Shown here: positions 6,545-64,000 of the stretch, piece by piece
Layout: each line of letters starts with the position of its first letter
Numbering within the stretch: the stretch's first letter is position 1
Assembly (NCBI GenBank): GCA_964016885.1
Contig: OZ024751.1
Location: 45,198,001 to 45,262,000, forward strand
Length of the DNA: 64,000 nt
From: Eledone cirrhosa
Taxonomy: Eukaryota
Direction: 5' to 3'
Notes under the pieces: model-generated
Told to the model about the DNA's origin: nothing
The model's input: the letters and a program-made list of their open reading frames with translations, nothing else
Databases searched by the model: none
Program-made: the position numbers and the translations under genes

Positions 6545-7317
6545 TTAAAATATTTTGTGTTGTTTAGAGAATAGTTTTTGTTTCATAACTCCATTATGTA
6601 AAGATTTTTTTTTTACCAATTTACGATTGTTTTGAAGACCGTATTCATTCAAAACATATAAAAAACAATAGGAAATATCAATTTCATGTCGAAAGTGAAA
6701 CTTGTAATATTCAACCCCAAAGGGAAACCGAAGTAATATTCACCTCAAAATATTTTAGCACCACATTTACATAGAATTTTTCAGCAAAATATTGACCTCG
6801 AATATGCCCCCCACACACATTTTACATTCTTTTTTTTTTTTGTCATATTTTATATATGAATATATGGTAATTCATTTTAGTGCTATTATGTAAAATGTTT
6901 AATTGAAGAATGAATTGACAATGAGATAAATTTGTGTTGTATGTTAGAAACAAAACATTGCATGTATTACAATAGTGACTAATGCTGCCTTAATTTAATA
7001 CGTGAATGTTAGCATGTATTTCAGATCAGATTTTCATATTGTAAGAAGCAGCACAGGTATCCTAAGAGATTGGGAAGAAAGGAGGGGAGGAATAAACCCA
7101 AGGACGATGTTTTATTTATTTTATTTTATTTGCTAGCATCCTAACTTATATCTGGGAAAATTTCAGGGTTTTTTTTTTGTGTGTATTGAGGTGGGAGATG
7201 AACATGTTTTTACAAGTGGATAACCGACTTATTACTAACCATTGAAGCATGTTAGTCTAAAATAGACTAACATGTAGATGGTACTTTGAACAAATGCAGT
7301 ATCTTCAACAATACCTT

Positions 7318-9232
7318 TGGCCTAGCAAGTCCAGTTCCCTAAACTGGCCAAGCAAGTCCACCACCTTAAACTGGCCAAGCAAGTCTACTACCTTAAACTG
7401 GCTTAGCAAGTCCAGTTCCCTAAACTGGCTTAGCAAGTCCAGTTCCCTAAACTGGCTTAGCAAGTTCCGTTCCCTAAACTGGCTTAGCAAGTCCAGTTCC
7501 CTAAACTCGCTTAGCAAGTCCAGTTCCCTAAACTGGCCAAGCAAGTCTACTACCTTAAACTGGCCAAGCAAGTCTACTACCTTAAACTGGCTTAGCAAGT
7601 CCAGTTCCCTAAACTCGCTTAGCAAGTCCAGTTCCCTAAACTCGCCTGGCAAGTCCAGTTCCCTAAACTCGCCTGGCAAGTCCAGTTCCGTAAACTCGCC
7701 TGGCAAGTCCAGTTCCGTAAACTCGCCTGGCAAGTCCAGTTCCCTAAACTGGCTTGGCAAGTCCAGTTCCCTAAACTGGCTTGGCAAGTCCAGTTCCGTA
7801 AACTGGCCTGGCAAGTCCAGTTCCGTAAACTCGCCTGGCAAGTCCAGTTCCGTAAACTCGCCTGGCAAGTCCAGTTCCCTAAACTCGCCTGGCAAGTCCA
7901 GTTCCCTAAACTCGCCTGGCAAGTCCAGTTCCCTAAACTCGCCTGGCAAGTCCAGTTCCCTAAACTCGCCTGGCAAGTCCAGTTCCCTAAACTCGCCTGG
8001 CAAGTCCAGTTCCCTAAACTCGCCTGGCAAGTCCAGTTCCCTAAACTCGCCTGGCAAGTCCAGTTCCCTAAACTCGCCTGGCAAGTCCAGTTCCCTAAAC
8101 TCGCCTGGCAAGTCCAGTTCCCTAAACTCGCCTGGCAAGTCCAGTTCCCTAAACTCGCCTGGCAAGTCCAGTTCCGTAAACTCGCCTGGCAAGTCCAGTT
8201 CCGTAAACTCGCCTGGCAAGTCCAGTTCCCTAAACTGGCTTGGCAAGTCCAGTTCCCTAAACTGGCTTGGCAAGTCCAGTTCCGTAAACTGGCCTGGCAA
8301 GTCCAGTTCCGTAAACTCGCCTGGCAAGTCCAGTTCCGTAAACTCGCCTGGCAAGTCCAGTTCCCTAAACTCGCCTGGCAAGTCCAGTTCCCTAAACTCG
8401 CCTGGCAAGTCCAGTTCCCTAAACTCGCCTGGCAAGTCCAGTTCCCTAAACTCGCCTGGCAAGTCCAGTTCCCTAAACTCGCCTGGCAAGTCCAGTTCCG
8501 TAAACTGGCCTGGCAAGTCCAGTTCCCTAAACTGGCCTGGCAAGTCCAGTTCCGTAAACTCGCCTGGCAAGTCCAGTTCCGTAAACTCGCCTGGCAAGTC
8601 CAGTTCCCTAAACTCGCCTGGCAAGTCCAGTTCCCTAAACTCGCCTGGCAAGTCCAGTTCCCTAAACTCGCCTGGCAAGTCCAGTTCCGTAAACTGGCCT
8701 GGCAAGTCCAGTTCCCTAAACTCGCCTGGCAAGTCCAGTTCCCTAAACTCGCCTGGCAAGTCCAGTTCCGTAAACTCGCCTGGCAAGTCCAGTTCCCTAA
8801 ACTCGCCTGGCAAGTCCAGTTCCCTAAACTCGCCTGGCAAGTCCAGTTCCCTAAACTCGCCTGGCAAGTCCAGTTCCGTAAACTCGCCTGGCAAGTCCAG
8901 TTCCCTAAACTCGCCTGGCAAGTCCAGTTCCCTAAACTCGCCTGGCAAGTCCAGTTCCCTAAACTCGCCTGGCAAGTCCAGTTCCCTAAACTGGCTTGGC
9001 AAGTCCAGTTCCGTAAACTGGCTTGGCAAGTCCAGTTCCGTAAACTCGCCTGGCAAGTCCAGTTCCCTAAACTCGCCTGGCAAGTCCAGTTCCCTAAACT
9101 CGCCTGGCAAGTCCAGTTCCGTAAACTCGCCTGGCAAGTCCAGTTCCCTAAACTCGCCTGGCAAGTCCAGTTCCGTAAACTGGCTTGGCAAGTCCAGTGC
9201 TCTAAACAGGCCTAGCAACCCAGTACCCTAAA
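7318..9232. repeat. 27-bp tandem satellite, about 70 copies
   Basis: Unit tccagttccctaaactcgcctggcaag with a few variant positions; produces the 645-aa and 637-aa ORFs on opposite strands. Confidence 0.97.
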
Positions 9233-12700: not shown

Positions 12701-14787
12701 ATCATCATCATCATCATCATCATCGTTTAACGTCCATATTCCACACTTGCATGGGTTTGGACGGGAGTTTTCCCACTTGCGGCAAGAGTGGTTGCCTTGC
12801 TTGCATAGGACTGTCTGGCGGGTTGTCTATGGCTGGATGCCCTTCCTAACACCAACCACATTTAAAGTGTGGAACTGGGAGGTTTTTACCATGTTACCTA
12901 CACGGCCACATTACAGCGTGGACTGTGTGTTTTTTTTGTCGTGACACCTACACGACCTCATTTGTTTCGGCCTGGATGTTGTGGTACCAACATAACTTTA
13001 CATTGAAAGGGGCGGTGTGGATGGGGTGAGGGTAGTGGGACGGGGGTGTATTTTGTTAGAGGTGCCTACTGACTGTAGTAGGTTTTACTTTGTATTTAGG
13101 TAAGGCGGGTCTTCTCTATTACTGTGTACCGCCAAAGATCTCGGTCCAGTGACATTGTCTTGGAGAGGTGTAAGTGTGTGAGGTCGGGATTTATCAAGCC
13201 GTCCCAGGTTTTTCTGGGTCTGCCTACTCCGTGGCTACCGTCTATTTTTATTGCCCTGCACTTTTTTATACAGCTGTCGTCTTTCATGCGCATCACGTGA
13301 CCATACCAACGTAGCCTTCTCTTGAGTAAACAACATCTGATCCCTCTTATTTCTAATTTTTTCCTTAGTTCGTTAATGCTTTGCCGTTCACGTATATTAC
13401 TATTATACATCCAGCGGAGCATGCAAGCTTCGTTCCTCTCTAGTCTGCGTATATCCTTTGCACACAATGCCCAAGTCATCATACAGCCTGCCTTTCATTT
13501 TTAGGGAGAACCCTTTAGCGGCTAATAGTGGTATAAGCTCTCTGAACTTTTTCCATCCTGTTCTGACTCTAACTACTGTACTTTCAGAGCACCCTCCCCC
13601 ACTGCTGATTTTGTCACCCAGGTAACGGAAGCTGTCCACTATTTCTATAGAACCCTCTGTGCAATTGAAAGAGCTAGTATTCTGTGGGCACTTGCTGCTA
13701 CTTATTGCACCAGAGCACCGGCCACATGTAAAATCTATGTTCTTAGTTAGCTTACCTGTGATCCCACTACATCTTTTATGTACCCATACTTTGCATTTGG
13801 GACATAAAATGGAGTTTCTACCTACTCCTTTCCTACACACTGAGCATGGCCATTTCCCGGATGGGACCGGCACCCTATTTTCCTTCATACAGACTAGAAC
13901 TTTAGTCTTAGACAGATTAATTTTAAGGCCTTTTGATTCTAGGCCGTGCTTCCATGTTTGGAATTTCTTCTCTAGTTCGGCCATTGATTCAGCTATGAGC
14001 GTTAGATCATCTGCGTATAGGAGTTCCCATGGGCAGCCAGTCTTGAACTCCACTGTTATAGCCTGAAGGGCAATAATAAATAGTAGGGGGCTAAGAACAG
14101 AGCCCTGATGAACACCAACTTTTACGCTAAACTCTTCACTATATTCGTTGTTAATTCTAACCTTGCTGACTGTTTCTTTATACATGGCTTGTATAGCTCT
14201 CACAAGCCATTCATCAACACTTAGTTTTCTAAGAGCCCACCAGATAATGGAACGGGGGACTGTGTCGAAGGCTTTCTCCAAGTCGACAAAAGCTAAGTAT
14301 AGGGGTTTACTTTTAACTAGGTACTTCTCCTGTAGTTGTCGTACAATGAAAAGAGCGTCTGTGGTACTTTTGCCTGACACAAACCCGAACTGCATTTCAT
14401 CTAGATCAATTCTCTCTCTGATTAGTTGCGCTATTACTTTTTCCGTGACCTTCATCACTCACCTGGTCGATTAATTTAATGCCTCTATAGTTACTCCTAT
14501 CTAGGGCATCTCCTTTACCCTTGTAGCAGTTAATGATGATGCTGCTACGCCAGTCCTTCGGAACAACCCTATTCTGTATGACTTGGTTTACTATCCGGGT
14601 GACCATGGTGTGTCCCACCGTTCCAGAGGCTTTCAGCATTTCAGCAACTATTTCCGAAGGCCCAGCCGCCTTACCCGTCTTCATATCTTTGATTGCCTTA
14701 CTTATTATACTACCTTCGACTAACACTGCTGGTCCCTCTATTGGGTCGATGTGGGGGAGACTGTCTTTCTCCCATTTATTCTCCTCA
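12701..14787 (-). mobile_element. 5'-truncated, frameshifted RTE-clade LINE (RT domain, Cys/His finger, 3' UTR, (GAT)n tail)
   Basis: Three overlapping ORFs (14406-14855, 13403-14458, 13096-13482) carry NYRGIKL, QFGF, FVDLEKAFD, GVHQGSVLSPLLF, LYADD and the RTE C-terminal RLRWYGHVMR...GRPRKTW. Confidence 0.95.
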
Positions 14788-14965
14788 AAATATATATATA
14801 TATACATAGTGTTAAAACAATCAAATTTTAGTTTAGAACATTTATTTGCATACAATTGTTTCTTCCAGAGGGAAATCTGGAATCATCAGTCATACTGGTA
14901 ACCGGCTAGTACTTAGTACTACCCTCCATATTTATAATTGTATTAAACATATATAATTTTCTTAT

Positions 14966-15442: not shown

Positions 15443-15694
15443 ATAAAACAAATTAGGATGATAGAAATAAGTTTTTACATGGTTTAATTCTTACTATTGT
15501 TTCTTATCTATTATTTTTTTAAATATATATATATTGGAGAATGTACATACATGCGTGTATATAAATGTGTGTTATTGTATGTCTGTATCAATCTACAGAT
15601 ACTTGTTTACATATTTGATACAACTTTATAGGTACTTCTTACTCATGTTATATATATATGAATATATATTTTTTTCTTCTTCTTCTTCTTTCAG

Positions 15695-15917
15695 CATCGA
15701 CAAAGTTCCTAAGATCTCGTCTCCAGTTTTAGTGATCCATGGCACCGATGATGAGGTGATTGATTTCTCGCACGGCCTTGCTATATATGAACGGTGTCCT
15801 AGAGCAGTGGAACCATTGTGGGTAGAAGGTGCAGGCCATAACGATGTCGAACTCTATGGACAATATCTTGAGAGACTCAAACAGTTCATCCACACAGAAC
15901 TAGATTATCTATATTAG
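15695..15917 (+). CDS. ABHD17: Alpha/beta hydrolase domain-containing protein 17 (depalmitoylase), last coding exon
   Basis: Polypyrimidine tract and tttcAG acceptor at 15693-15694, phase 2; [65 protein letters not shown] matches the ABHD17 C-terminus with catalytic Asp and His. No upstream exons found in the window. Confidence 0.95.
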
Positions 15918-38608: not shown

Positions 38609-39370
38609 TCATCTATTTCTTCTGTCCTCATTTCTATAACCCCTGTCTCTGTATTTAGAATTGAAATTCTCTCTCCCCCTTTCTCTACTTCTGTAGCTCC
38701 TGTCAGAATTCCCACCTCTGTCCCCTCTATCTCGATAATCTCTGTTATCACCCCTAGAATATTCTCCAAACCTGTTATCTTTGTATTGGAAGTCCCTATT
38801 CTTCTGGTGGTAACTGTCCTTGTAGTCCCATTTCTTATAACCACTGCTACTATCTGAGCTGACAATTATGGGTTTTTTAAAGGGCCGGTCCCTCCCACCA
38901 AATCGTAATTGTCCTGACTCTTTATTGCCTCCAAAGCCCCCTCCAAGTCTACGAGGAACCCAGTTTTTCAAAACTCGTTCCCGTTCAAAGTCAACGAATA
39001 TTTCGGAGCCATCCAACTGAGCTTTATTGGCTTGAATGAAGGCTTTACGTGCAGAATATTCCTCCACATATTCTATAAACCCATAACAGCGTGTGAACCC
39101 TGTAACAATATCACGGACAAGACGAAGCTGTTGAATTTGACCGAATTCACTGAAACATTTTCGGAGGCTGTTTTCATCAGTTTTAGGGTTGAGTCTTGAG
39201 GTAAATATTGTCTTTCCGGGATCACCAGCAACCTGTTTGTTAGGTTTATATTTACAGTTCAGTGCTCGTATTATGCCGTGGTCATGTGCTAACTCATCAG
39301 TTCCATCAATGCTCCCTGCCATTAGGGGGTCATAGACATGAGCAATAGGAGACCAAAGATCCTCAGCCAT
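38609..39370 (-). CDS. SNRNP35: U11/U12 small nuclear ribonucleoprotein 35 kDa protein
   Basis: MAEDLWSPIAHVYDPLMAGSIDGTD...HDHGIIRA; RRM with GDPGKTIFTSRL and VRDIVTGFTRCYGFIEY; WVPRRLGGGFGGNKESGQLRFGGRDRPF; R/D/S-rich tail. An acceptor AG (plus 39379-39380) lies 8 nt before the ATG, implying a separate 5' UTR exon. Confidence 0.96.
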   Translation of the reverse strand: MAEDLWSPIAHVYDPLMAGSIDGTDELAHDHGIIRALNCKYKPNKQVAGDPGKTIFTSRLNPKTDENSLRKCFSEFGQIQQLRLVRDIVTGFTRCYGFIEYVEEYSARKAFIQANKAQLDGSEIFVDFERERVLKNWVPRRLGGGFGGNKESGQLRFGGRDRPFKKPIIVSSDSSSGYKKWDYKDSYHQKNRDFQYKDNRFGEYSRGDNRDYRDRGDRGGNSDRSYRSRERGRENFNSKYRDRGYRNEDRRNR

Positions 39371-40859
39371 TGCTTCTCCTGAAACAAAACAAAACAAAAC
39401 AAATATATATTACTTGTTTCTACTTTTTGCACAAGGCCAGCAATTTGAAGAAGCTGGGAGATGGGGAAAGTCGATTAAATCGACCCCAGTGTGCTACTGG
39501 TACTTTTATCAGCCCTGTAAAGATGAAAGGAAAAGCTAACCTCGGCGAGATTTGAACTTAGAATGCAAAGGGCTGTAACTATATGCCACAAAGTACGGCG
39601 TCCGATGCTCTACTGATACTGCCAATCCACCGCCATCACAAATATAAATTAATAAAAACACGTAAAACAAGGGCATCCAGCTGTAGAAACCAAATCAGTC
39701 CTGTATGAGCATGACATGGTCACCTGACCTAGCATTCCCCACAACAGGACAACTCGTCTAACCCATGCTAGTGTAGAAAAATGGACGTAAAATGATGATG
39801 ATGAATTAAAACAAATAAATAAATAAAAATATACAAATAGGAAAAAGCATGAGTAGGACAGGTATTCCAATGTTAAGGAACTAGAACAAGATTTTGTCAT
39901 CCAACTCATCAACACACAGATATGCATAACCCAATGAGGGAGTCTTTATGAGAAGTCACCCAACTTGTTAGAAATAGCAGTCATGTCACACTCAAATAAC
40001 ACATTTTTTTTAATTTCAAAATTAATGTATATATAAACCCATAACACTTGATGGAGCTACAGAGGTACTGCAGTGATATATGGTATTTCTTGGGCATTTA
40101 AAACTTGGTGGAGCCTGTCCCCTCCTAGGGTCTGAACACAGCCAATTTCTTCCAGCAAGAGAAAGAGAGAGGGAGAGAAGGGGAGCGAGAAAGACATATA
40201 ATGAAGAATCAACTTCGGTACAAGACTAGTATTTATTTTTATCAACCTCGATATTATAAAAGACAAGGTTGACTTCAGAGTACATTGAGCTAGAACAAAC
40301 AGCAAAATAGTCTATCTGACTGTCAATGCACATCGAAATAGGATGGACAATATTTGACTTTGCCATAGTTAAATCAAAAGTTGTTTCCCTTTAAACAAGG
40401 TTTGCATGATACATGTAATAATTGTTTCTACCTTTGGCACAGGGCCAGCAATTATCCTAGTATGTTACTGATGCTTTATTTTATCGACCCCGCAAGGATG
40501 AAAGGCAAAGTTAACCCCAGCGGGATTTGAATAATAGTCGAGAGTTGGCGGAGAGTTGATTTGCACCTTTTCACCCAACTTTAATCCTTCATATGCTTCA
40601 CATGTCCATACCAGCACAATCTTCTTTCTTGCACACTACATCTGATTCCTCTCATATCCAGTTTTTCTCTCAGCTCATGTGTGCACTCTCGTTGATGCAC
40701 ACAAATACATCCAGTGTAGTATACAAGCCTCCTTTTTTCCACTACCATACAACATACTGGGATTGATATGATTAGCTAAAGGCCATAAAGGTGTTTCCCC
40801 AGCATAGCAAGCCAAACTTTAAGAGTAATATACCTAATTATAGCGAAAAACAGAGCAGA

Positions 40860-48300: not shown

Positions 48301-48849
48301 TTCATTAGAAATATGTTCCTGAAAAGTGTAAGTAATTTTTCCTTTGAGTCTGGTTAGTAATGCTGTCTTTTGACTTTTAATTTATTGTTCTTTTTGTAAC
48401 CTCAATCTTTTGTGACTATATTTTTTTCTTATAAGTAGATTGCCTTTGTCTTTCAATTAAATATCAGTCTAATCAAGTATTTATAACTTTATATATTGTT
48501 GTGTATTACTATGTTGGTGTTGATCAACTAAAATCTTATAATACCATTCACTTTAGGAAAGAGATTTTGGTGGAGATTTTCATTTAAATATAAACAGTTA
48601 AAGGAATGTATGTTTAGAAAATAGCGAGTGGAATTTGAAAATTGAATTAGAAGATTTTGCTGTAACTTTGACAAAATATTATAGTCTAATAATAATGGGG
48701 CGTATAAACCCATTGAAGGGAAAAAAATCTTGTGGTATTAAAAAGTTGAAAGAACATCGCATTGTTATGTAGTATTCTGTATATATTTCAACATATTGAT
48801 GAAATTGGTACTGGTTTTCTGTGTTTTCCAGAATATTCTGAAGTTCATT

Positions 48850-50007
48850 ATGCCGTCAACCCCCACTGAAGTTCCAGAAGCTCCCGGGCCAATTAATGTC
48901 GCTAACATTGCAGACCAAGCTAGTGTGAGCCACCAACATGGCAATGGTGAATTTGAATTAGATAAGAATGAAGAACATTTATCAGTAACAAAAGAAACTT
49001 GGAATGGAGACACTTCTGGCAAATCTAATGATTCTGGAGGATGTCAAGCAGAAATTAGTACCTCTCAGTTAAATTATTCTAGTAACGCTACTGTAACTAT
49101 AGGTAAAACTGCACAAGAACTTACAGCCGCACTTGGCCCTTCAGAAATGTTAATCAAAGCTCCAGATAGTGTATTGAACTCTCATCAATCTACCAGTGAT
49201 GAAGCAGTGATTGAGAAACCAGGTACTCTTGAACCTTCAGAAATGTTAATCAAAGCTCCAGATAGTGTATTGAACTCTCATCAATCTACCAGTGATGAAG
49301 CAGTGATTGAGAAACCAGGTACTCTTGAACCTTCAGAAATGTTAATCAAAGCTCCAGATAGTGTATTGAACTCTCATCAATCTACCAGTGATGAAGCAGT
49401 GATTGAGAAACCAGATACTCTTGAACCTTCAGAAATGTTAATCAAAGCTCCAGATAGTGTATTGAACTCTCATCAATCTACCAGTGATGAAGCAGTGATT
49501 GAGAAACCAGGTACTCTTGAACCTTCAGAAATGTTAATCAAAGCTCCAGATAGTGTATTGAACTCTCATCAATCTACCAGTGATGAAGCAGTGATTGAGA
49601 AACCACCAGAATTGTCGTTAAACCAATCAGTAGAAGCAGATGTGACGAAAGAAGAAGAACAACAACCACAAGTAAACGAAGAAGAAGAACAACAACAACC
49701 GCAAGTAAAAGAAGAAGAAGTAATACAAAATGAAGTAATATGTTCAGAGGAAAGTGGAGCTGCTCACGGTGATGTAAACATTTTACAGACTAAAGAAGTT
49801 TCAGTTGAATCTGGTAAAGATAGACTGTCAGAAAGTAAAGAGAATGCTGTGAGCCAAGATCAAAATACTGATTCACATGCTCAAGTTAAAGATAGAGGAG
49901 ATATTGAGGAATCAAAAGTTGGTGAAAAAGTGAACAATGTTTCAGAGACTGTTGAAGACTTTCTAGAAACTACGGATATTTTAGGCAATGGATTGCTTTT
50001 GAAAACG
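48850..50007 (+). CDS. FKBP8: FKBP8 coding exon 1 (acidic N-terminus with 5 x 32-aa repeats)
   Basis: Acceptor ttccAG 48830-48831, ATG 48850, ends TDILGNGLLLKT|GTAAGT (FKBP8-type DILGNGLL motif); 1158 nt, phase 0. Confidence 0.88.
49138..49605 (+). repeat. 96-bp coding tandem repeat, about 4.9 copies
   Basis: ccttcagaaatgttaatcaaagctccagatagtgtattgaac...gagaaaccaggtactcttgaa; peptide PSEMLIKAPDSVLNSHQSTSDEAVIEKPGTLE. Confidence 0.97.
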
Positions 50008-50212
50008 GTAAGTCACATGACTCCTGTGTCCTGTGTCCAGTCATATTCCTCTGCCCTGTGTCCAGTCCTCAGTGTCATGTCATCAGACCATGTGTCTCCT
50101 CCTCCATTTAACGTCTATCACCCCTGCTAGCAAAAGTCATTTTTTAAAGAACATTTTGAGCATCTACCTGAAAATTAATTACTTTTGTTTATAAATATAC
50201 AAACAACCAAAG

Positions 50213-50250
<38 letters not shown>

Positions 50251-50254
50251 GCAT

Positions 50255-50490
50255 TATCATCGTGTTTACGCCCATTTTTCAATGCTTGCATAGGTTGGAT
50301 GGGTCCTTTTCAGCACAGCCTCTCTCCACTCGCCGCATTCCTTCATCATCTCTGTGAGTCTCAGCAATTTATGATCAGCTCTACCCAGGTCTTACTTGGT
50401 CTACCTCTACTGCGGCTTCTTTCCACTGGGATTTCCTGGCGTTTCTTCATCCAGTGATCATCATCGATGCACATCACATGTCCGTTACAC
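50255..50490 (-). mobile_element. Decayed RTE LINE 3' fragment in an FKBP8 intron
   Basis: GHVMCIDDDHWMKK...RSRGRPSKTW plus the aacctatgcaagc tail. Confidence 0.65.
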
Positions 50491-50566
50491 ACATACGTAT
50501 ATATATTTTTTTCTTCTGTTTTGTTTTTAACTGTTCCTTTTCTAAATCTTTTTTCCATTAATTTAG

Positions 50567-50714
50567 GTTATTAAAAAAGGAGATGGACAATTGACCCGAC
50601 CATTACAAGGTCAGAAAGTTACTCTAAAAACAGAAGGTTTCCTCCCTGATGGAAAAGTCATTGACAAAAATAATTCCATTTCATTTATATTAGGTGATGG
50701 TGATGTAATTGCAG
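50567..50714 (+). CDS. FKBP8: FKBP8 coding exon 2 (FKBP domain)
   Basis: tttAG|VIKKGDGQLTRPLQGQKVTLKTEGFLPDGKVIDKNNSISFILGDGDVIA|GTAACT; phase 0 to 1. Confidence 0.93.
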
Positions 50715-51105
50715 GTAACTTTGGTTTCTTTCTCATTTTTGCTTTTAAATATAAATTAGAAATTAAGTGCCATGATGGCTGTATTTCTAGTTTATTTTAC
50801 ATCTTTTATTTATTAAAAAGCTTTTTTTTGGGGGGGGGGGGGGGTCAATGGAATGGTTCTCTTCCATGACTGTTACAGGTTCTCTGAGACTGGTATCTCA
50901 CCAGATGTATGTATTAATGTTCCATTAATTGTTAAAAATGAAATGATAACAAAGATGTTAGGATGTTACTTTACAGTTATTTATTGGTTCTCTTATATTT
51001 CGGGGATAAGATCGCTTCATCAAAAGAATAATTGAAGTAACTAATTTGGATATATAGATATCTTTTAGATTTTTATGTTTGCCTTGATTATTATATTGTT
51101 TGTAG

Positions 51106-51193
51106 GCTGGGACATTGCTGTTGCTTTGCTGCAAATAAATGAAATAGCTGAATTAAAATGTGATGCCAAATATGCCTATGGTAGCCAAGGCAG
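51106..51193 (+). CDS. FKBP8: FKBP8 coding exon 3 (FKBP domain)
   Basis: tgtAG|GWDIAVALLQINEIAELKCDAKYAYGSQGR|GTAAGT; phase 1 to 2. Confidence 0.93.
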
Positions 51194-52200
51194 GTAAGTT
51201 TAATATTTCATGAGATTCCCTCTTAACCCTTTCAGTAACATATTTCAAATAAAGGACAGTGTATGTCATTAACCATTTTGTTAACATATTTTTAATGAAA
51301 GACACTGTCTATAGTTTTCAAATCATTTCAAAAATAATAATTTGGCGGGATTTAGTAATATAGAAAACTTTCTCATTAAGCTGGTATTTAGAGGAAGGTT
51401 TTTAGATAGATATAAGCACTTTAACCTTTTAGTTACCATATTTCTAATGAATGGCAGTGCCTATGGTTTTCAAATAATTTTGAAAATAATCAGGAATTTC
51501 TCATTATTACACTTGTGTTTGGAACATAACTTAACAAAGGTTTTCATACAAAATTATAATAGATGGTCTTTACATAAATATATCCATGTGTATCGAGTTT
51601 GGAATAGGTACACCATGTCTCAGTGTATTGTAAGAAGTGACTAAAAGGGTTGATATCGGAAAGGGCATCCAGTTAAAAAAGTAAAAAAGATTACTTTAAA
51701 AAGTTCCATTCAATTTATGTCAGCATGGAAAAGTCAACATAGAAGCAATTATCTATCTATCTTGAAACCTCTTGGGGCTGCAGTCAGGATTATACATATC
51801 TCTATACCCACTCTGCATCTCCCATGATTAATGGTCTCTTCGGTCTCAGCACCACACACTCTCACACTCTATATATATATCTGTTTGCATATGTATATAT
51901 ATATGTGGCAGTGTATATCTGGTGTAGAATAGATACACTATATACCTGTGTGATGTAAGAAGTGACTGAAAGGATTGGTGTCCCATTCAATCCCTGCCAC
52001 CATGATGTGTTTTCCAATGATACTAAAGTTGTGTGTGTGTGTATATACTTTTCAATGAGACTAAAGTATGGATATGTTTGTGTTTTTGAATGATAGTAGA
52101 GGATGTGTATGTGTTTTGCAATAATGGTCGAGGATGTGTGCGTCTTTTTTTATTTGTTTTCTACTTGATATCAGCCACTGTCTTTTGTGTTGTATTGTAG

Positions 52201-52311
52201 ATATCCTGATGTGCGAAGCAATATCACCATTAGATATATCCTGGAACTACTTGACAAAGAACCAGGACCAAATTACAGTTTCATATCACTTGATGAACGA
52301 CTTCGTCATGC
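52201..52311 (+). CDS. FKBP8: FKBP8 coding exon 4
   Basis: tgtAG|YPDVRSNITIRYILELLDKEPGPNYSFISLDERLRHA|GTGAGT; phase 2 to 2. Confidence 0.92.
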
Positions 52312-52789
52312 GTGAGTATAATATTGGTGTTGTTTGTTTTATTGAGACAACATTCTTCTTCTTAGCATTTCATCTGCTCCGACATGTCAACATATCCAAT
52401 ATGTGGAATGTAGTAAAGAAAGAAACAAATAAACACCAATACATTCCATGTCATTCACCAAATATAAATATACAGTTGTCCCCCCGGTATTTGTTGGGGT
52501 TACGTTCCTAGAGGACCTGCGAAGAGTGAAAAACCATGAATATTGGACGTGGTCCATAAAACTGCCTATAAACGTCAAAACATAACGTAAAATATAGGCC
52601 GGCAAATACGGTATATTGTTATCAATAATTTAGCGTTAAAAAGCGTGAAAACCTTTTGTTGTTAACAGTGGGATTAGCTCTCTAAACCTCTTCTGTCCTA
52701 TCCTTATTCTAACTATTATGCTCTCAGAATACCTAATTATATATATTATTTTTCTATTTTCCCTAATTTTTTTCTACTTTCTTCTCTAG

Positions 52790-52864
52790 ATCTGTCAAAA
52801 AAGAACGAGGAAATTATTTATTTACTCGAAATGATTTTCACGGCGCTATTAACTCTTATGTAAA
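52790..52864 (+). CDS. FKBP8: FKBP8 coding exon 5 (TPR1)
   Basis: tctAG|SVKKERGNYLFTRNDFHGAINSYVK|GTAAGT; phase 2 to 2. Confidence 0.93.
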
Positions 52865-53248
52865 GTAAGTATCACAATAACTTCTTTTCTTTATAGTAAT
52901 CCTCATCACCACCGTCATCATCATCATCACCACCATTGTTTTTACATTGTTTTTTTCCCATGTTAATATGGGTTGGACGTGACTTTTTGAGGCAATGTTT
53001 TACAATCGGATGCCCTTACATAACAATTTTTAAAATTCATTAGTGCGACATAAATCAATTTATTTGTTTCAGACGAAGAACCTTTTATACAAAATTTGTC
53101 AAAGACTGTACTATTATCACCTTCTGCTAACATCTATTCTCACCTATTAACACCTTCTATTATCACCTTCCATTAACACTTTCTATTATCATCTTCTATT
53201 AACACTTTCTATTATCATCTTCTATTATTGTTGTTATCTCTGAAACAG

Positions 53249-53360
53249 AGCTATCAGTATTATTGATCAAGAGGAAAATATTGAAATGACAGAGAAAACT
53301 GAACAGATTCGGGCAGAAAAAATTAAATGTTACAATAACCTGGCAGCTGCTCAAATTAAG
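53249..53360 (+). CDS. FKBP8: FKBP8 coding exon 6 (TPR)
   Basis: aacAG|AISIIDQEENIEMTEKTEQIRAEKIKCYNNLAAAQIK|GTAAAT; phase 2 to 0. Confidence 0.93.
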
Positions 53361-53886
53361 GTAAATATTGTTTCTTTATAACACCTCTTACATTGGGTAC
53401 TGTTGCTGTTGTCACCTTATTACTGATGTTATGGTCATCTTTTTACTCTTGCTATGGTCAGCTTGTTACTCTTGCTATGGTCAGCTTGTTACTGTTGCTG
53501 CTGGACATATACAAATGTCACTGTCTTCTCTAGTGTCAATGTGAAAATATGTGTGGCTACATACATATAATCGATGGGCTTCTGCACAGTTTCTGCCTAC
53601 CAAACTTCACTCATAAGGCATTAGTCTGCTCAAAGCTATAATAGAAGGCCCCTTGCCTAAATTAACATGCAATGGGATTGTACCCCAAACTATGAGGTTT
53701 AGAAGCATCATCATCATCATCATTGTTTAATATCCATTTTCTATGCTTGCATGAGTTAAGCAAGCTGTCACTTTATGAGACGGGTCAGGTGAGGCGACCA
53801 TGTCTTGCTCTTACGGATTTGTTTGGGGCTTGGTTTTTATGGCTGAATCCCCTTTGATAAACATTTCAATGTCTTCTGTTTTGTAG

Positions 53887-53976
53887 ATTGAAAGATATAC
53901 TGAAGCTGTGAAAGCATGTGAAGAAGTTTTAGAACATGACCCCAAAAATGTCAAGGCACTTTTTAGAATGGGAAGA
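53887..53976 (+). CDS. FKBP8: FKBP8 coding exon 7 (TPR)
   Basis: tgtAG|IERYTEAVKACEEVLEHDPKNVKALFRMGR|GTAAGT; phase 0. Confidence 0.93.
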
Positions 53977-54208
53977 GTAAGTTTATCAGAGAAACAACTA
54001 TTCAATTATCTTTATTTTCTTTTGTAATATTTTAAATTCATTCTTATTTATATTAAAACCTGTGTGGCATTGATGTTTCCATATAATCACAAGTTGGATG
54101 GGTTTGGAGTTTGTTGGCTTAACAAATTTAGACATTACTTCACTGGGGAGCAATTTAAAAAAAGGACAATAAGAAAAAAAATAATATTACCTAATATTGT
54201 AAATTTAA

Positions 54209-54416
54209 CCCTTTAGCATATACATTACTCTATATTTACTGTTATATTTTCATGGTAAACACTTTACCTCACATAACAATATCGAATCTGAGATTTTGAT
54301 ATTATTTATTTTGAGAACAATACCTTAACATCACTATGAGTGGCCGGTTACAGCCAGATGATCAGAAAGAAGTGAAAGAATTCTGGCCGGATATGGCCAG
54401 TTTAAATGCTAAAGGG
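54209..54416. mobile_element. TTAA-family MITE in an FKBP8 intron
   Basis: TTAA|ccctttagcata ... aatgctaaaggg|TTAA. Confidence 0.78.
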
Positions 54417-54480
54417 TTAAAGCAGTAATGATTATTTATTAAACATTTTGTTGATGCTAACTTGCCATTCTTTACTCTAG

Positions 54481-54558
54481 GCTTATGCTGCCCAAGATGA
54501 AACAAAAGAAGCTATTATACAGATGAAGAAAGCACTAAAATTAGAGCCAGAAACTAAG
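54481..54558 (+). CDS. FKBP8: FKBP8 coding exon 8 (TPR)
   Basis: tctAG|AYAAQDETKEAIIQMKKALKLEPETK|GTGACA; phase 0. Confidence 0.92.
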
Positions 54559-55293
54559 GTGACATTTCTGTACTCACTGTTCACATATTTCATGCTGTCT
54601 TCATTAACTCTTAACATCCTGTAATCATTTAGTAGAAAATATCTAAAAACATGTTTCTTAATTCAAATGTTTACTGTATTTTTACTAGTGGATAGATCGC
54701 TGTGAAGATTTTTGTTATTACAGTGAAACCTTGAATTTTTAATATGATGCAGTCATAATGATAGGGGCTCCAGTCCTATCGTGTTACAACTCACCCCTGT
54801 GTAGGTTTAGCTGGCCTTTTACACATAGATTTCTCAGGTGTTTTAATGACAGGGGCCCCAGTCCTATCATGTTGTTACAGATCACACCTATGTAGGTTTA
54901 GGTGGCTCCCTACAAGGTTGCATCTCATTGGAGGTTTCTCAAGTGTTTTAAAGATATGGGTATTTTATCATGGCATAAACACTAAAAAAGAGTCTTCCCA
55001 AAACATTGGCAGGTTTTCTATGTCTGGATGTCCTTCATATCACCAACCATTTTACAGAGTGTACAGGGTGTGTTTATCCTGTAGATCACAAATACAAGGG
55101 AGGTTGTCATGTCTTTGACACAGTTGGAGGGTCCTTCTAATCCTTTGTTTGACAAGCTTTCTGTGTCTGGATGTCCTTCCTATCATCAACCATTTTACAA
55201 GTGTACTGGGTGTATTTATCATGTAGATCACCAACACCAACACAAGATGTGTAGATTATAAGATTACTATTAAAGGCCTTTGTTTTCTTTCAG

Positions 55294-55419
55294 ATTATTC
55301 ACCAGGAACTATCAAAACTCACCAAAAAGTTATCTAAGGAAACACAGTCTGAGCGTAATATGTGTAAGAAAATGTTCCGTACTGATAAACCTCCTGCTAA
55401 ACCACCTTCAGATTATTCT
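55294..55419 (+). CDS. FKBP8: FKBP8 coding exon 9 (post-TPR helix, calmodulin-binding region in orthologs)
   Basis: ttcAG|IIHQELSKLTKKLSKETQSERNMCKKMFRTDKPPAKPPSDYS|GTAAGT; phase 0. Confidence 0.92.
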
Positions 55420-55439
55420 GTAAGTTTTGGCATTTTACT

Positions 55440-55587
55440 TTATTCCTAAACACATTATCCCTAAACATATTATTTCTAAACACATTATCCCTAAATGCAT
55501 TATTCCTAAACACATTATCCCTAAATGCATTATTCCTAAACAATATCCATAAACACATTATTTCTAAATAAATCCCTAAACACATTA
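55440..55587. repeat. About 15-bp minisatellite
   Basis: tattcctaaacacat / tatccctaaatgcat units. Confidence 0.8.
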
Positions 55588-55990
55588 TGGATGGCTGGTC
55601 ACAAACAAGTTCAGTACATAATCAATGCCACTGACCTCTCAGATGAGACTTTGTATTTTATATAAATTGAATTTATAATCATAATTGTGATATAAATAAA
55701 AATATAGTAAACTGTTCCTTTATTTTATAAGTGTAAAAATTCCATTTTTGAAATAATCAAAGATTTAGAGGGAATACTAAAAACGAAAGATAATTATTGA
55801 TATTGGGGTAGAAGACAACAAAACCAAAACCCTGTAGGATTCTAAATAGCCCCCTAAATAACACCCCATTTTTGGCTAGATTTCTATGGTCCTTCCAGGC
55901 CTTCATAATCAAATTGATAACTTATCCCAGATATTTAATGAAACTATGTCTGATTTTTGTTTTTTATTTCTTTTCATTTTATTGTTTCAG

Positions 55991-56065
55991 TCTTGGAAAT
56001 GGTCAATTATTGCTGGTAGTTTGGTCGTGGTATTACTTTCATTAGGTGTTGCGTACTTCCGTTAG
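55991..56065 (+). CDS. FKBP8: FKBP8 coding exon 10 (C-terminal tail-anchor helix and stop)
   Basis: ttcAG|SWKWSIIAGSLVVVLLSLGVAYFR*; WKW plus hydrophobic helix plus basic terminus, as in FKBP38. Confidence 0.92.
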   Translation, partial: SWKWSIIAGSLVVVLLSLGVAYFR

Positions 56066-57925: not shown

Positions 57926-59727
57926 TTAATAGCAACCTGTTTCAACAAAATAATTTTTTTCTATCAAAATAATCAAACAAGTTGGGCATACATTCCCTTA
58001 TCAAAGTGGACAGTTAACAAAAAAAAAAAATTGCTTTGAAGCAGCTTATGTTAAGTTACCATTTTTAAAACTTAAAATGTGATTTATTAAATATTTATAT
58101 CGACTGGCCAATAAATAAGACTTAAAATGCTTAAAATGACCAGTATGTTGTGCTACCATTACCCCAAAGCAAGACTGACAATTGCTTGGCCTGTTGTAGG
58201 TGTGAGTTCATATCACACACATGATAATATCCACTTTTTATGTCAAACTTGTTGAACTATTTACATTGTAAAGACAAAAACACCCATGTTCAAGCAGCTT
58301 TCGTTAAGTTAACATTTATTTAATGCTCTGTGAGGATGATTGATATATATGTGTGAGAGGAAGATAGTCAAATACGGAGGCCTGACCAACCACTTCCTCT
58401 TTGCACTGGTCTCAGTCAAGACCTCTGGCATCCTTGATCCCCGCACTGCTGATTTTCTCTATAAAGTCAGAAAGACAGCAGTCTGCTTGAGGACAGCCTT
58501 GTGATGAGTGGTGGTTGCTGCAGCGGGTGTCTCTAGCAATTCACTCCCTCCCTTCTTTTCTTTCGTTAATTGATCCTTTATTTTTTTGTCTTGCTTTTTT
58601 GTTTCCCATTTATTATATACTGCTCAATAATTGTTATCCAATGTCTGTAATTTGAAGGCGATTTTGCTGCTAATGTTAAGTGTTGATTCACTGCGCCTTC
58701 TGTTGTTTCCCTAAGAAAAAACAAGATATTTAAACTGTTGTCGTTATTTTTTAAGGATAAGAGGAAACCCTATACGTGGCTTTCACTTTTTCAAATAACA
58801 CGAACAATTGTCAAATTTGTCATTGCAATTCTGTCATTTCAGAAGACGAAAGAAAAATAAGTCCAGTAACTTCTAAAATTTGAGAGTAGTTTATGGTTAA
58901 CAGTGGAGACAACTCTGGAACTATTTCAGTAGATATAATTTGAAAATGGTTATATTTTATTGGATAAAGAATTAAAAAATATATAGACTGTTGGTTAGAA
59001 ATAAAAAAAAATCTGTGCTCATCGCCTTTATAGACGTTCTCTAATTAAAAGTTGTGCATAATCAAAAGAGTACATTGTATTTAATCAGTTTGAATCATTG
59101 AAATTTGTTGGGAGGAAATAGGAGCAAGAAGGGAGATAAGTCAGATTGAAGATTTGAGAGTAAGCATGGAAAATGGAAGTGAAATACGGTTGATTAATGA
59201 GAGGAAATACAGGGGGATTAAATGGATTTAGAGCTCTTGCTAATTCCTAGTGTAACAAACAACGGTATCTCACGACCATGTCACTTAATGAAAATGAAGG
59301 CGCGTAGACAGACTTACAGTCATAATGTCGTGGGTTCGATTTCCAGTATACTCAGCTGAAAATAAGTACCAGCAATAGCTGGAGGTTCAGCCCAGCGATA
59401 GGCTGGCGTCATGCCCAAGGATGGGGGTTGTAATCGCAGTTACTTAATGCCACGGAAATTGAGATAGCAGCCTAATGAGCCTCAGGGTTCGAGACACGAA
59501 CTAAAGTGGTTATTCACTTGACCTGCTAGAAATAGTTGCGAAGCTAAATTCCCAACCCATGCGTCTTAAAGTACACACTAAAGAATTTATATATCCTTAA
59601 AAATAGACGTGATGGTCACAGCTGGAATGTCTTTAATGGATAACTTGAAGTCAAATCAACGCTGCCATCACATATACGAGATTGTCAATTTCCTGCAACT
59701 TCAGTTTTTTTGTTTATATATATATCT

Positions 59728-60010
59728 AAAGTCTGTCTTAAGCCAGAAGGCTCATTTGGCCGGTGCTTATCCCGGTTTCATGGCGTGAAGCGACTGAGAG
59801 TACAAGACCCCCCCCCCCCCCGGACAGGACGCCAGTCCATCGCAGTCCAACCTCCAGCTATTGCTGGTACTCATTTTCAGCTGAGTAAACTGGAGCAACG
59901 TGAAATAAAGTGTCTTGCTCAAGGAAACAACACATCACCCGGTCCGAGAATTGAACTCACAACCTTTCGATTGCAAGCCTAATGCTCCAACCACTAAGCC
60001 ATGCGCCTTC
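59728..60010 (-). mobile_element. tRNA-headed SINE (same head as 3669, different tail)
   Basis: Reverse complement begins gaaggcgcatggcttagtggttggagcattaggcttgcaatcgaaaggttgtgagttcaattctcggaccggg and ends agacagacttta. Confidence 0.8.
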
Positions 60011-60169
60011 ACACACACACAGTTTTTTATGGTATCGAAACATATTTAATGTGTATGGTAATCGTGTTTCCCTTTAAATAATGGATCTTAGTTCAGAACC
60101 TCGACAATTCAAATTCAAAAGATATATTTAGAGAGAAAAAGTCATATATCGTTTGAGAAACACTGTTTT

Positions 60170-60252
<83 letters not shown>

Positions 60253-60294
60253 CACGATATTAACAAATGGAAACTATATTTATAAAACCATATT

Positions 60295-60359
60295 TATTTC
60301 ATTATACATATTTCAAGGATACCAAGTTAAATTATGGTATGCCTTCATCAGACAAAATA
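60295..60359 (-). ncRNA. Type I hammerhead ribozyme motif (mirror copy of 61030-61094)
   Basis: Exact reverse complement of the plus-strand motif in the right arm. Confidence 0.72.
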
Positions 60360-61029
60360 CAATATATACCAGTTTTATAAATAAACATTGACGTACCCTT
60401 TTAAAATGCAACCGTTACTTTTGGAAGACATCAGGACTGGTATACCTTCATCAGACAAAATACAATATATACCAGTTTTATAAATAAACATTGACGTACC
60501 CTTTTAAAATGCAACCGTTACTTTTGGAAGACATCAGGACTGGTATACCTTCATCAGACAAAATACAATATATACCAGTTTTATAAATAAACATTGACGT
60601 ACCCTTTTAAAATGCAACCGTTACTTTTGGAAGACATCAGGACTGGTATACCTTCATCAGACAAAATACAATATATACCAGTTTTATAAATAAACATTGA
60701 CGTACCCTTTTAAAATGCAACCGTTACTTTTGGAAGACATCAGGACTGGTATACCTTCATCAGACAAAATACAATATATACCAGTTTTATAAATAAACAT
60801 TGACGTACCCTTTTAAAATGCAACCGTTACTTTTGGAAGACATCAGGACACCTGATGTCTTCCAAAAGTAACGGTTGCATTTTAAAAGGGTACGTCAATG
60901 TTTATTTATAAAACTGGTATATATTGTATTTTGTCTGATGAAGGTATACCAGTCCTGATGTCTTCCAAAAGTAACGGTTGCATTTTAAAAGGGTACGTCA
61001 ATGTTTATTTATAAAACTGGTATATATTG

Positions 61030-61094
61030 TATTTTGTCTGATGAAGGCATACCATAATTTAACTTGGTATCCTTGAAATATGTATAATGAAATA
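61030..61094 (+). ncRNA. Type I hammerhead ribozyme motif
   Basis: tattttgt-CTGATGA-aggcatacca-taatttaact-tggtatcctt-GAAA-tatgta-TA^-atgaaata: stem I 8 bp (2 GU), stem II 10 positions with one C-C mismatch, quasi-palindromic stem III, AUA cleavage triplet. Confidence 0.75.
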
Positions 61095-61224
61095 AATATG
61101 GTTTTATAAATATAGTTTCCATTTGTTAATATCGTATATCTACTCCAAATACTTGTCGAGTGCTTTATATCAGTTATAAAAATATTTGCTTGTTGTATCC
61201 CAACAATTTAAATAGAACTTTTGC

Positions 61225-61257
<33 letters not shown>

Positions 61258-61261
<4 letters not shown>

Positions 61262-61567
61262 TAATTAAAAGTTTAACAAGGTTCAATGAATAAAGTTTCA
61301 CAATAGATTATAGGCACTCTACAGAGAGGTTTTCTGGAGTTATATTAATAAATATAGACATTCATGTGATCAAATATATTTTATTATACATATTTCAGAG
61401 ATACTGAGCTATTTCAACAGCTAAATTATAACCATCAACATAGTCAAGGTATGTCAGGCATCAACTTATTTTATCTGATGAGGACGTACTGTTGAAATAG
61501 CTCAGTATCTCTGAAATATATATAATAAAATATATTTAATCACATGAATGTCTATATTTATTAATAT
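61258..61567. repeat. Fold-back element: 79-bp inverted arms plus tail
   Basis: 61342-61420 is the near-perfect reverse complement of 61489-61567; flanked by TA-rich tracts. Confidence 0.9.
61467..61532 (+). ncRNA. Type I hammerhead ribozyme motif
   Basis: tattttat-CTGATGA-ggacgtactg-ttgaaatagct-cagtatctct-GAAA-tatata-TA^-ataaaata: perfect 8-bp stem I, stem II 10 positions with one C-C mismatch, palindromic stem III AUAUAUAU. Confidence 0.8.
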
Positions 61568-61838
61568 TTTGAAGCAATATATATATAGTTATAGATATAT
61601 ACACATATATTTATGAATATATACACACACGACTCTGAAAGGTGTATTATTAGTAAATGTTTGTTCCATACTTTGATTTTCAGAACTATACGATTCAATA
61701 TATCCATCCTTTCCTACACATAAAAAAAAAGATAGTAAGGTAGAGACTTGGTTGCTATCTTTAGCAGACAGAGTGACCTCGTAAAGTCTCCCCTTTGACT
61801 AAAAAAAAAAAAAAATGAAGAGATTTAAATTACACCGA

Positions 61839-61894
<56 letters not shown>

Positions 61895-62099
61895 GAAAAT
61901 AGGAACAGATGTTGCCACCAAACGTCATTTGATTAACTATGTAGCAGATATATCGATGGAAATAAGCTTGCATTACATATAAATTGACCACTTGGTGAAT
62001 ATATTTAAAAGGAAGAATCATACTTATTATTTTAAAAAATATATATTAAATGAAATGGATTTATTGAAAATATATATTTAGCGTAAATATTTAGATATA

Positions 62100-62300
62100 T
62101 ACGGGGATCGGCTGACTATGAAGGAGTGACGCTAAAGCTGTATGACGTTAGAGCTGTGAAATCTTGAATGTATTAATCTCAACTCTTCTTATTAGTAACT
62201 GCATTGTTTCTTTCCAAGGACTATGTTGAAAAATAAACCTCATTAGCTTACTCCATGAGAGTGTCTTGGTCTGCCTATGAATTTTAAGCCGACCCTCGTA
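62100..62300. mobile_element. Mariner-like MITE
   Basis: TAcggggatcggctga ... aagccgaccctcgTA with internal sequence shared with 110-274 and 24750-24960. Confidence 0.7.
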
Positions 62301-63044
62301 AACAGCAAGCTGTTTCTATTGGCTTTAGATCTTGGAACAATCTTTTAAATATTTAAATAATTTGTCGACAAAGAGAAAGTCTATATTACATCGTTTATGT
62401 TTTAAAAACAAAATAAGTTTAAGGGATATAATAAGTGCTATACTATTTTTTTTTATAAAAAAAAATTAAACTACATTAAAACCTCAGCATTCGATCTTTT
62501 TCACTGTAATGGAAAAAACGCAACGATTAAACGGAAAAGTGAAGTGTTACCAGAAAAATCATCTACATTTTATAAAGAGCTATTATTGCTAGAGTAGTCC
62601 AATCCTTCTCACTCCTGTTAGAGGAACTCCTCCCTGGTTGACCTCCACTGCTTTGTTTGGTTTTGGCCATGTTAGGGGTGTAGCTGTTTCACCACACTTG
62701 GTCAATTGCGGGCTATTTAAACCCTAGTTGGATGTACGTTGACTCCGAAGAGTTCATCCGCCCTTTTAACAGCTCTTGCTTTTTTTGTACTGCTGGGGAT
62801 TCCACTTACTCTCCTCACCAGACCAAGGTTTGGTTGGGGAGCTAGTTTAGTCGCCAACTACTTAACTATGAAGCAGATTGTACTGGTTTACATGGTACCA
62901 GTAGCAGGCAGAAGCCTGACCTGACTCCCAGAGTTGTATGACATTTTAATTTATTTTTTTGTGGTCATATAATCTTGTGTTGAAAGAGTCAGTGTAAAGA
63001 TAAGGTTACTTAGTACAGAAAACACGCATCACCGGGCAATGAGA

Positions 63045-63832
63045 CTTTACAGGGTTGCTAGACATGCTAGAAATAACAGCCAGATGTCCATAAAATTACA
63101 CCCCACCGTCTTTATAAAAGGAAAAGCATATTAAATAAAGTTTTCATGTCTCAGGGAACCCCTACAAAATATTATTAGATACCCCGCCGAGGTTCACTTT
63201 GCTTTTCATCCTTACGGGATCGATAAAATAAAGTACCAGTAATGTAATGAGTATTTGCTGGCCTTGTGCCAAAGTAGAAACAATTATTAATCTCTAATCC
63301 TTTTATAATTTTATCGTAGTTCACGTCGTAAACATAATATATTTGTTTCCGATAACTGGTTTAAAGAAATCCTGATCCTCTTTTTGTCAAATTTATTGGT
63401 AATGCAAAAAAGAAAAGCAACAAAAAACAACCATACTGTTCCTAAGTCCACACATTAACTTTGCCTTTTATCCTTACGGCGTCGATAAAATAAAGTACCA
63501 GTAATGCACCGAGTATTTATTGGCCTTGTGCCAAAAGTAGAAACAATTATCTTATCACTGTTTCTCGCGGAACCCTAAGATTCCGGAGAACACCGGTCGA
63601 GAAACGCTACTCTACAGGGTTGCTCGACATGCTAGAAATAGCAGCCAAATGTCCATAAAGTCACACATCCCATCGTCTTAATAAAAGGAAAAGCATATTA
63701 GATAAAGTATACCCCCCAGGTAATGAGACTACAGGGTTGCCATAAATGCTAGAAATAGCAGCCAGATGTCCATAAAATCACACATCCCACCGTCTTAATA
63801 AAAGGAAAAACATATCAGATAAAGTATAGCCC
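63045..63832. repeat. Three about 100-bp direct repeats with two interposed SINE-like pieces
   Basis: tacagggttgct...atgctagaaatagcagccagatgtccataaaatcacac...aaaggaaaagcatatta near 63048, 63613 and 63730. Confidence 0.8.
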
Positions 63833-64000
63833 TAGATCTACTAGGTCCTCTCGTCGACTCATGTCCGTATAAATATATAAATCTACAGATACCTGTGAGT
63901 CTGTACGTATTTGATACAACCATACACAAGTAACCCTAACCAGCATCAAAATAAATTAATTCGGTAAATCTGACGAAATATTTTCTCATTTCAAAATCTA

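Follow-up and report, generated by a model that had tools for sequence, protein, structure and literature searches.

The locus and its two fold-back elements

The window analysed here is a stretch of 64,000 nucleotides from Eledone cirrhosa (assembly GCA_964016885.1, 3.0 Gb; contig OZ024751.1, positions 45,198,001 to 45,262,000 of the forward strand). It holds a tandem array of about 2 kb with a 21-bp period and several open frames (7261–9231), a disrupted LINE reverse transcriptase containing a PHD-like insert (13096–14882, minus strand), the last exon of an alpha/beta hydrolase that we take to be ABHD17-like (15471–15917, plus strand) and an RRM protein in one open frame, presumably SNRNP35-like (38609–39409, minus strand). 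A further gene (48742–56062, plus strand) has a tandem-repeat-expanded acidic N-terminal exon, weak FKBP matches, and TPR and transmembrane exons; we assume the name FKBP8-like from these motifs. Two inverted SINE-like copies with a common 46-nt arm lie at 59342–60001, with a weak tRNA match at 59944–60001. The elements studied lie 3′ of the FKBP8-like gene, about 4 kb beyond its last coding exon. An intronic position was considered and rejected, since that gene ends near 56060.

Element A has its left target in a (CA)n and then (TA)n microsatellite (60171–60249). Behind it stands an inverted, 5′-truncated copy of the family-A terminal repeat, or pLTR (60250–60849, minus strand), which stops at a short arm end, followed by a direct fragment of the same pLTR (60851–61139, plus strand) that is 97–98% identical to the ends of two full-length elements (L085 and L086). 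The direct fragment carries a type I hammerhead motif (61030–61094, plus strand; core at 61038), predicted to be cut at AUA after 61086, and the inverted copy carries its mirror (60295–60359, minus strand; core at 60351 in the descriptor scan), with a predicted cut after 60303. A tail of about 90 nt (61140–61229, plus strand) equals the start of the 5′UTR of full-length elements and includes the first copy of a bulged hairpin (61142–61164, plus strand), 2 nt 3′ of the arm end. The (TA)n run at 61230–61259 is common to the tail ends of A and B. Element B then comprises its tail (61260–61341, minus strand), which has a 17-nt deletion at the arm junction relative to L061, its own first hairpin copy (61313–61340, minus strand), a pLTR fragment truncated inside stem II and devoid of CUGAUGA (61342–61420, minus strand) and an opposite pLTR fragment ending in a TA-rich run (61421–61581, plus strand). 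The last is 97–98% identical to the 3′ ends of two ORF-bearing family-B copies (L063 and L129) and contains a type I hammerhead (61467–61532, plus strand; core at 61475) with a predicted cut at AUA after 61524.

An earlier, sequence-only reading of this locus had described two neighbouring inverted repeats with homologous tails, each bearing hammerhead motifs. The inverted arms were recovered, 292 nt at 99% identity in A (60247–60538/60851–61142) and 79 nt at 97% in B (61342–61420/61489–61567), and the tail homology is real. A descriptor scan of both strands found the three motifs where they had been placed and no others in the window. A hammerhead in each element held good for the pair in A and for the plus-strand copy in B, but B has a single complete motif, its tail-side minus-strand copy being truncated inside stem II.

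Element A also contains 103-bp tandem units (60335–61054), five to the left and two to the right of the palindrome centre, with a 3-nt spacer. They include the CUGAUGA half of the hammerhead core but lack the GAAA half, and hence do not form an array of ribozymes. Because the junction of this array matched the genome at five places, all within the window locus, the array is a local duplication. Among public contigs, three runs from one sample gave loose (AT)n ends behind 61139, and no contig spanned the locus over 60900–61700. Long inverted repeats with inner tandem repeats, units that are 100% identical and whose number is without confirmation from reads, and weak miRNA model scores could all fit a MITE or Foldback DNA transposon, a miRNA hairpin or an assembly artefact. 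However, inner breakpoints vary among copies, the ends are asymmetric with a one-sided tail, and in place of the fixed symmetrical terminal inverted repeats and transposase parent of a MITE or Foldback element there is an ORF with RT-type motifs, so we find this explanation scarcely credible. The miRNA hairpin was rejected separately, as the Rfam miRNA matches were below gathering and were judged generic hairpins.

Terminal fragments of Penelope-like elements

Both halves of the locus are dispersed repeats (best 40 candidates scored for each half). Among the loci returned, the commonest form is an inverted truncated copy joined to a direct copy, with a one-sided tail and (TA)n on both sides, which bears out the earlier suggestion of a mobile, (TA)n-associated repeat. 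In longer copies the tail continues into an ATG followed by a long ORF. Full copies read pLTR (with hammerhead), tail, 5′UTR, ORF, long AT-rich 3′UTR and pLTR, and are often preceded by an inverted truncated copy. In the family-A copy L091, for example, (TA)n, an inverted copy, a pLTR, the tail, an open 742-aa ORF, a 1.75-kb AT-rich 3′UTR, a second pLTR and (TA)n follow one another, and direct pLTRs with an inverted 5′-truncated copy and an optional tail were also seen in L083–L088, L093 and L095. The family-A ORFs of L091 and L081 are both uninterrupted over their whole length and are 98.8% identical in DNA. Related ORFs lie 5′ of the family-B hammerheads in L063 and L127–L129, and the A and B proteins are 56% identical. 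Two more families, C and D, share this layout, with proteins 43–57% identical to that of A.

The Penelope link that had been suspected is thus borne out, since the same ends flank RT/endonuclease ORFs in the longer copies. Two other parts of that reading have to be given up: the repeat is not non-coding, as longer copies carry an RT/GIY-YIG-type ORF of about 740 aa, and A and B are two different families with a common TA target rather than one family. Pairs of other families share one TA run at two further loci (L008 and L046), which accounts for finding A and B side by side. Head-to-head palindromes are a known product of Penelope-like elements (PLEs; PMC3846280), and from sequence comparison the fold-backs in the window are almost certainly short head-to-head terminal fragments of two PLE families.

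We also considered a non-coding retrozyme or satellite family spreading via circular RNA. Type I hammerheads at very high copy number, tandem 103-bp repeats with no ORF at the window locus, and the argument that retrozymes derive from pLTRs are all in keeping with it, and non-LTR retrozymes likewise have a type I hammerhead and are PLE-related (PMC7229834; bioRxiv 10.64898/2026.07.22.740005). In those sources, however, non-LTR retrozymes are direct tandem units with a full ribozyme in each. Here the 103-bp units have no GAAA half and a junction confined to the window locus, neighbouring hammerheads in short copies are inverted rather than tandem, and the same ends flank ORFs in longer copies. 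A retrozyme origin is therefore highly improbable.

The clade of the elements was judged from the protein and from element structure. The element protein has no RT or GIY-YIG match in Pfam or PDB; its domains were assigned from motifs, relatives and Atlas neighbours. The open 742-aa ORF contains LYRDD and VY..YVG, the arrangement of an EN+ PLE (RT plus C-terminal GIY-YIG endonuclease); PF01541 (GIY-YIG) is matched by 3 of 40 homologues, and Atlas neighbours carry GIY-YIG/RVT_1 at 0.95–0.97. Named homologues come from Argonauta; no relative was found in viral contigs. Hydra PLEs are defined by RWK, DKT, CxCx5C, CxxC/CxH, the absence of CCHH, (TA)n targets and hammerheads, and include the family Hydra-1_Obim of Octopus bimaculoides (Craig et al. 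2021, PMC8557442). The protein described here has RWR, DKT, LYRDD, CxCx5C, CxxC and CxH: RIRWR and SDKTNNLY supply an RWK-type motif and DKT instead of DKG, and by inspection there are a CNCRNKSNC linker, CDLC and CCRH, no CCHH, and a single Cys inside the GIY-YIG core. A by-eye comparison likened it to Hydra-1_Obim end to end. With the Hydra clade the elements further share a single ORF with RW[K/R], (TA)n insertion, a hammerhead near the 3′ end, an optional tail and inverted truncated copies (PMC8557442). Families A–D thus very likely belong to the Hydra clade of PLEs, as far as these sequence characters go.

Several features set them apart within it. Their pLTR-to-pLTR length (4.0–4.3 kb in family A, due to the long 3′UTR) exceeds the typical, non-diagnostic, Hydra length of less than 3 kb, and their tails measure about 85–100 nt compared with 30–40 nt in published Hydra elements (PMC8557442). 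Stem II here spans about 10 bp and always includes a C-Y mismatch, against 3–7 bp in the published Hydra table, and stem III, AUAYRUAU/AUGCGCAU, is unlike those of the Hydra hammerheads published there. The hammerhead of Hydra-1_Obim is different too, four of five probe words being absent from the supplement parts compared (PMC8557442), and A–D are for this reason regarded, on sequence, as further families in the known Hydra clade. Whether the repeat was already catalogued, which the sequence-only reading had left undecided, has a divided answer: the kind is (Hydra-clade PLEs with hammerheads, among them Hydra-1_Obim), and families A–D are absent among the published Hydra hammerheads compared.

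Two observations on the longer copies stand by themselves. Asparagine-rich ORF stretches lie between the RT core and the endonuclease (L091:2700–2830 and 3010–3080) and recall the N-rich inserts carried by rotifer PLEs (PMC3846280). Large palindromes of two inverted 3′UTR copies (L061:5075–6480 and L081:653–2355) are likely to yield long double-stranded RNA or substrates for A-to-I editing.

Hammerhead motifs and their covariation

As had been described, stem I measures 8 bp in each of the three motifs in the window, stem II has nine pairs plus a C-C mismatch at position 4, the loop is 10 or 11 nt long and stem III is self-complementary. Strict matches were found in none of 30 local shuffles. 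Rfam, proposed earlier as a check, gave no hammerhead match in 58000–64000 (no model at E≤5) or at seven further loci, the gathering score not being reached. Two other proposed checks had positive outcomes: ORFs of RT/GIY-YIG type were found beside the same ends, and a genome-wide pattern for hammerhead groups A–C, family D being left out, returned at least 79,207 matches with one in the control, or at least one motif per 38 kb. This compares with about 4,000–9,000 copies in coelacanth and Xenopus (PMC4209133); it is not a record, because the axolotl has 126,247 type I motifs (PMC7229834).

Stem II was examined for covariation in 194 contexts, which yielded 19 variants seen at least twice and 6 subfamily representatives. 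Among the representatives stem II was 96% paired, compared with a maximum of 87% in column shuffles and 40–62% in slid controls, and seven of its nine pairs had changed on both sides, counts that ignore the relatedness of copies. Position 4 is C-C or C-U in all variants. Stem III is self-complementary throughout and in family C has changed from A-U to G-C as a palindrome, while in family D the C-C mismatch persists next to a stem I of 5 bp that is unrelated to the others. The motifs thus combine a type I core (CUGANGA/GAAA/NUH) with three helices and covariation support, and the claim of a conserved RNA structure with palindromic stem III was upheld. When 96 flank-anchored copies were taken from loci chosen without using the core, 79 were intact, 6 were truncated and 11 (of the 90 non-truncated copies) had changed cores. 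No fewer than six further type I hammerhead groups, whose stems differ, occur in the loci compared (L008, L061, L080, L038, L049, L143 and L095); one is that of family D, the only one linked to an ORF.

A hammerhead inside a PLE is an ordinary, known arrangement. As in the minimal or atypical type I hammerheads of metazoan PLEs (Cervera and de la Pena 2014, PMC4209133), the motifs lie in pLTRs, have a long helix II and a palindromic helix III, and occur mostly as solitary copies or close inverted pairs. Unlike that type, those described here lack both an extra nucleotide after A9 and a fixed G10.1-C11.1, pair 10.1-11.1 being A-U or G-U, not G-C.

Stems I and III of the monomer are weak: the pairing probability of stem I is 0.24–0.27, and the stem III duplex of A and B contributes only −2 to −3 kcal/mol. 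This weakness, the missing G10.1-C11.1, the low activity that metazoan PLE hammerheads show in vitro (PMC4209133) and an anole PLE hammerhead that cuts only with protein (PMC11167929) would suit a fold kept as a structural or protein-binding element without appreciable self-cleavage. Against this, the CUGANGA/GAAA/UA core is kept across families whose proteins are only 43–57% identical while all three stems change, and a palindromic stem III, as found, is what dimer cleavage needs. We regard a purely structural role as unlikely, and the hammerhead is probably cleavage-competent in full-length RNA. In read-through RNA of either window element the modelled probability of the hammerhead stems was 0.0, because the antisense arm pairs with them. 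The copies in the window are most likely inert remnants, since their antisense arms would mask them in such RNA.

A duplicated hairpin at the element ends

Full copies carry two copies of a bulged hairpin (RCUC-Y..R-UN-GAGY-RCU), one in the tail and one just before the ATG, and the hairpin is found in all four families, A–D. A copy-1 pattern matched the genome 12,673 times (control, 0), and an exact hammerhead core lay upstream in 23 of 30 loci picked on copy 1. Copy 2 sits 15–40 nt before the ATG; a pattern of copy 2 plus ATG gave 474 matches (control, 0), and an ORF start lay behind copy 2 in 29 of 30 loci picked on copy 2 alone. Taken singly, the hairpins have weak folds (z −0.4 to −2.3), and the upper stem is almost absent from copy 2 of family A.

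A distant test set was drawn from metagenome loci (best 80 of 517; proteins 31–39% identical). The strict hairpin descriptor matched 25 of 64 usable distant 5′UTRs. Defined by sequence only, the hairpin was present in 48 of 58 distinct 5′UTRs (twice in 28), compared with 1.7% of shuffles, and the standard motif was absent from the other 10. Pairing at upper pairs 1–3 reached 92, 63 and 73%, values that none of 2000 column shuffles attained; at pair 4 it was the same as the highest shuffle value, and at pair 5 it was at the chance level. This shuffle test on 58 5′UTRs is the fair one, the alignment with a near-invariant lower stem having been preselected for pairing. A reverse-complement control for the relaxed anchor matched 40 of 64 and is uninformative because GAGYRCTY is nearly palindromic; shuffles were used in its place. 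In four distant 5′UTRs without the standard motif (L270, L278, L316 and L318) a variant that includes GAG is repeated; it may be the form that the hairpin takes in a subclade.

In published Hydra consensus sequences (PMC8557442) the hairpin is clear by eye in Hydra-2_Amil, Hydra-1_Ajap (twice) and Hydra-2_Ajap, and it is seen with departures in Hydra-1_Crog and Hydra-1_Obim; a sixth consensus is incomplete. The hairpin gave no Rfam match at seven loci, and no description of it was found in the PLE literature searched, which did not extend to Repbase or Lunse et al. 2017. A duplicated hairpin beside the element ends is therefore an apparently new feature.

Element ends were located by measuring how far the first (TA)n lies from the predicted cut. 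These distances are bimodal in family A (43/99 at 47–58 nt, 37/99 at 137–149), family B (34/63 at 51–59 nt, 16/63 at 146–151) and family C (12/42 at 38–45 nt, 22/42 at 129–138), and also in family D. Some A–C loci had been picked with the tail; those picked by hammerhead alone are likewise bimodal. On the same scale the hairpin copies start at about 55 and 142 (A), 61 and 157 (B) and 51 and 142 (C). Each end cluster falls −1 to 9 nt 5′ of one of the hairpin copies, in most cases where there is a short stretch of TA. Counting only ends that can be mapped on the read-through copy near the motif, 105 of 112 ends here and 3 of 3 at metagenome loci fall at most 9 nt 5′ of a hairpin, and most mapped ends overlap TA by 1–5 nt.

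We propose that the hairpin is a clade-wide start signal for the reverse transcriptase, each copy fixing one end and the pair creating the PLE tail, a reading that the sequences make somewhat more probable than its negation. The GIY-YIG domain would nick (TA)n and the RT would prime on the nick, as PLE biochemistry suggests. The ORF protein would bind a hairpin and copying would begin immediately 5′ of that hairpin, so that ends form with or without a tail. As in the anole PLE, two internal start sites would define the tail; here the hairpin would be the positioning signal and a TA stretch would anneal to the nicked target. Early termination and a strand switch could then produce short palindromes such as those in the window. 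Two hammerheads are predicted to pair via the palindromic stem III and to cut at AUA, a reaction that would probably be slow or protein-assisted.

The main rival is that the hairpin motif acts as DNA (in endonuclease recognition or as an internal promoter) or in translation, the ends arising from TA microhomology alone. The near-palindromic GAGYRCTY, the almost invariant lower stem and the 1–5 nt of TA microhomology at most ends would be expected from it, and the tail of Drosophila Penelope has been reported necessary for endonuclease recognition (cited in PMC11167929). Compensatory changes in the upper stem, however, imply a single-stranded fold, other TA stretches in the AT-rich arms are rarely used as ends, and in four families each of the two end clusters goes with a copy of the motif. 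On this evidence we hold the rival to be rather unlikely and retain the start signal.

Two internal RT start sites also define an optional tail in the anole element PAc (Poseidon, Anolis; Frangieh et al. 2024, PMC11167929), which shares an AT-rich target and an upstream hammerhead with the elements described here. In vitro, in the one PLE so studied, hammerhead cutting was protein-assisted and dispensable for insertion. The PAc starts, however, lie inside the ORF at an AC-rich stem-loop and have no homology to the cut DNA (PMC11167929), whereas those proposed for the octopus elements lie in the 5′UTR at short TA stretches, with a conserved hairpin after each.

Collectively, our results are best explained, with a probability of about 0.8, by PLE end fragments that likely belong to the Hydra clade, carry hammerheads predicted to act as dimers and have a hairpin that likely sets the starts of reverse transcription. 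Within the start-signal reading, hairpin-bearing Hydra-clade PLEs would, on balance, occur in octopus, coral and sea cucumber as well as in marine plankton metagenomes. PLEs are the closest relatives of telomerase RT, and the choice of their start sites and the purpose of the tail have been approached in a single in vitro system. The hammerhead group offers a large set of natural variants for covariation studies, in which the C-Y mismatch is conserved. A clade-wide hairpin at both ends, open ORFs that are 99% identical in DNA and a simple (TA)n target make the proposal directly testable. If it is true, the hairpin would be the first sequence-defined priming signal in the telomerase-related class, accompanied by some 80,000 covarying hammerheads and by open ORFs suited to reconstitution.
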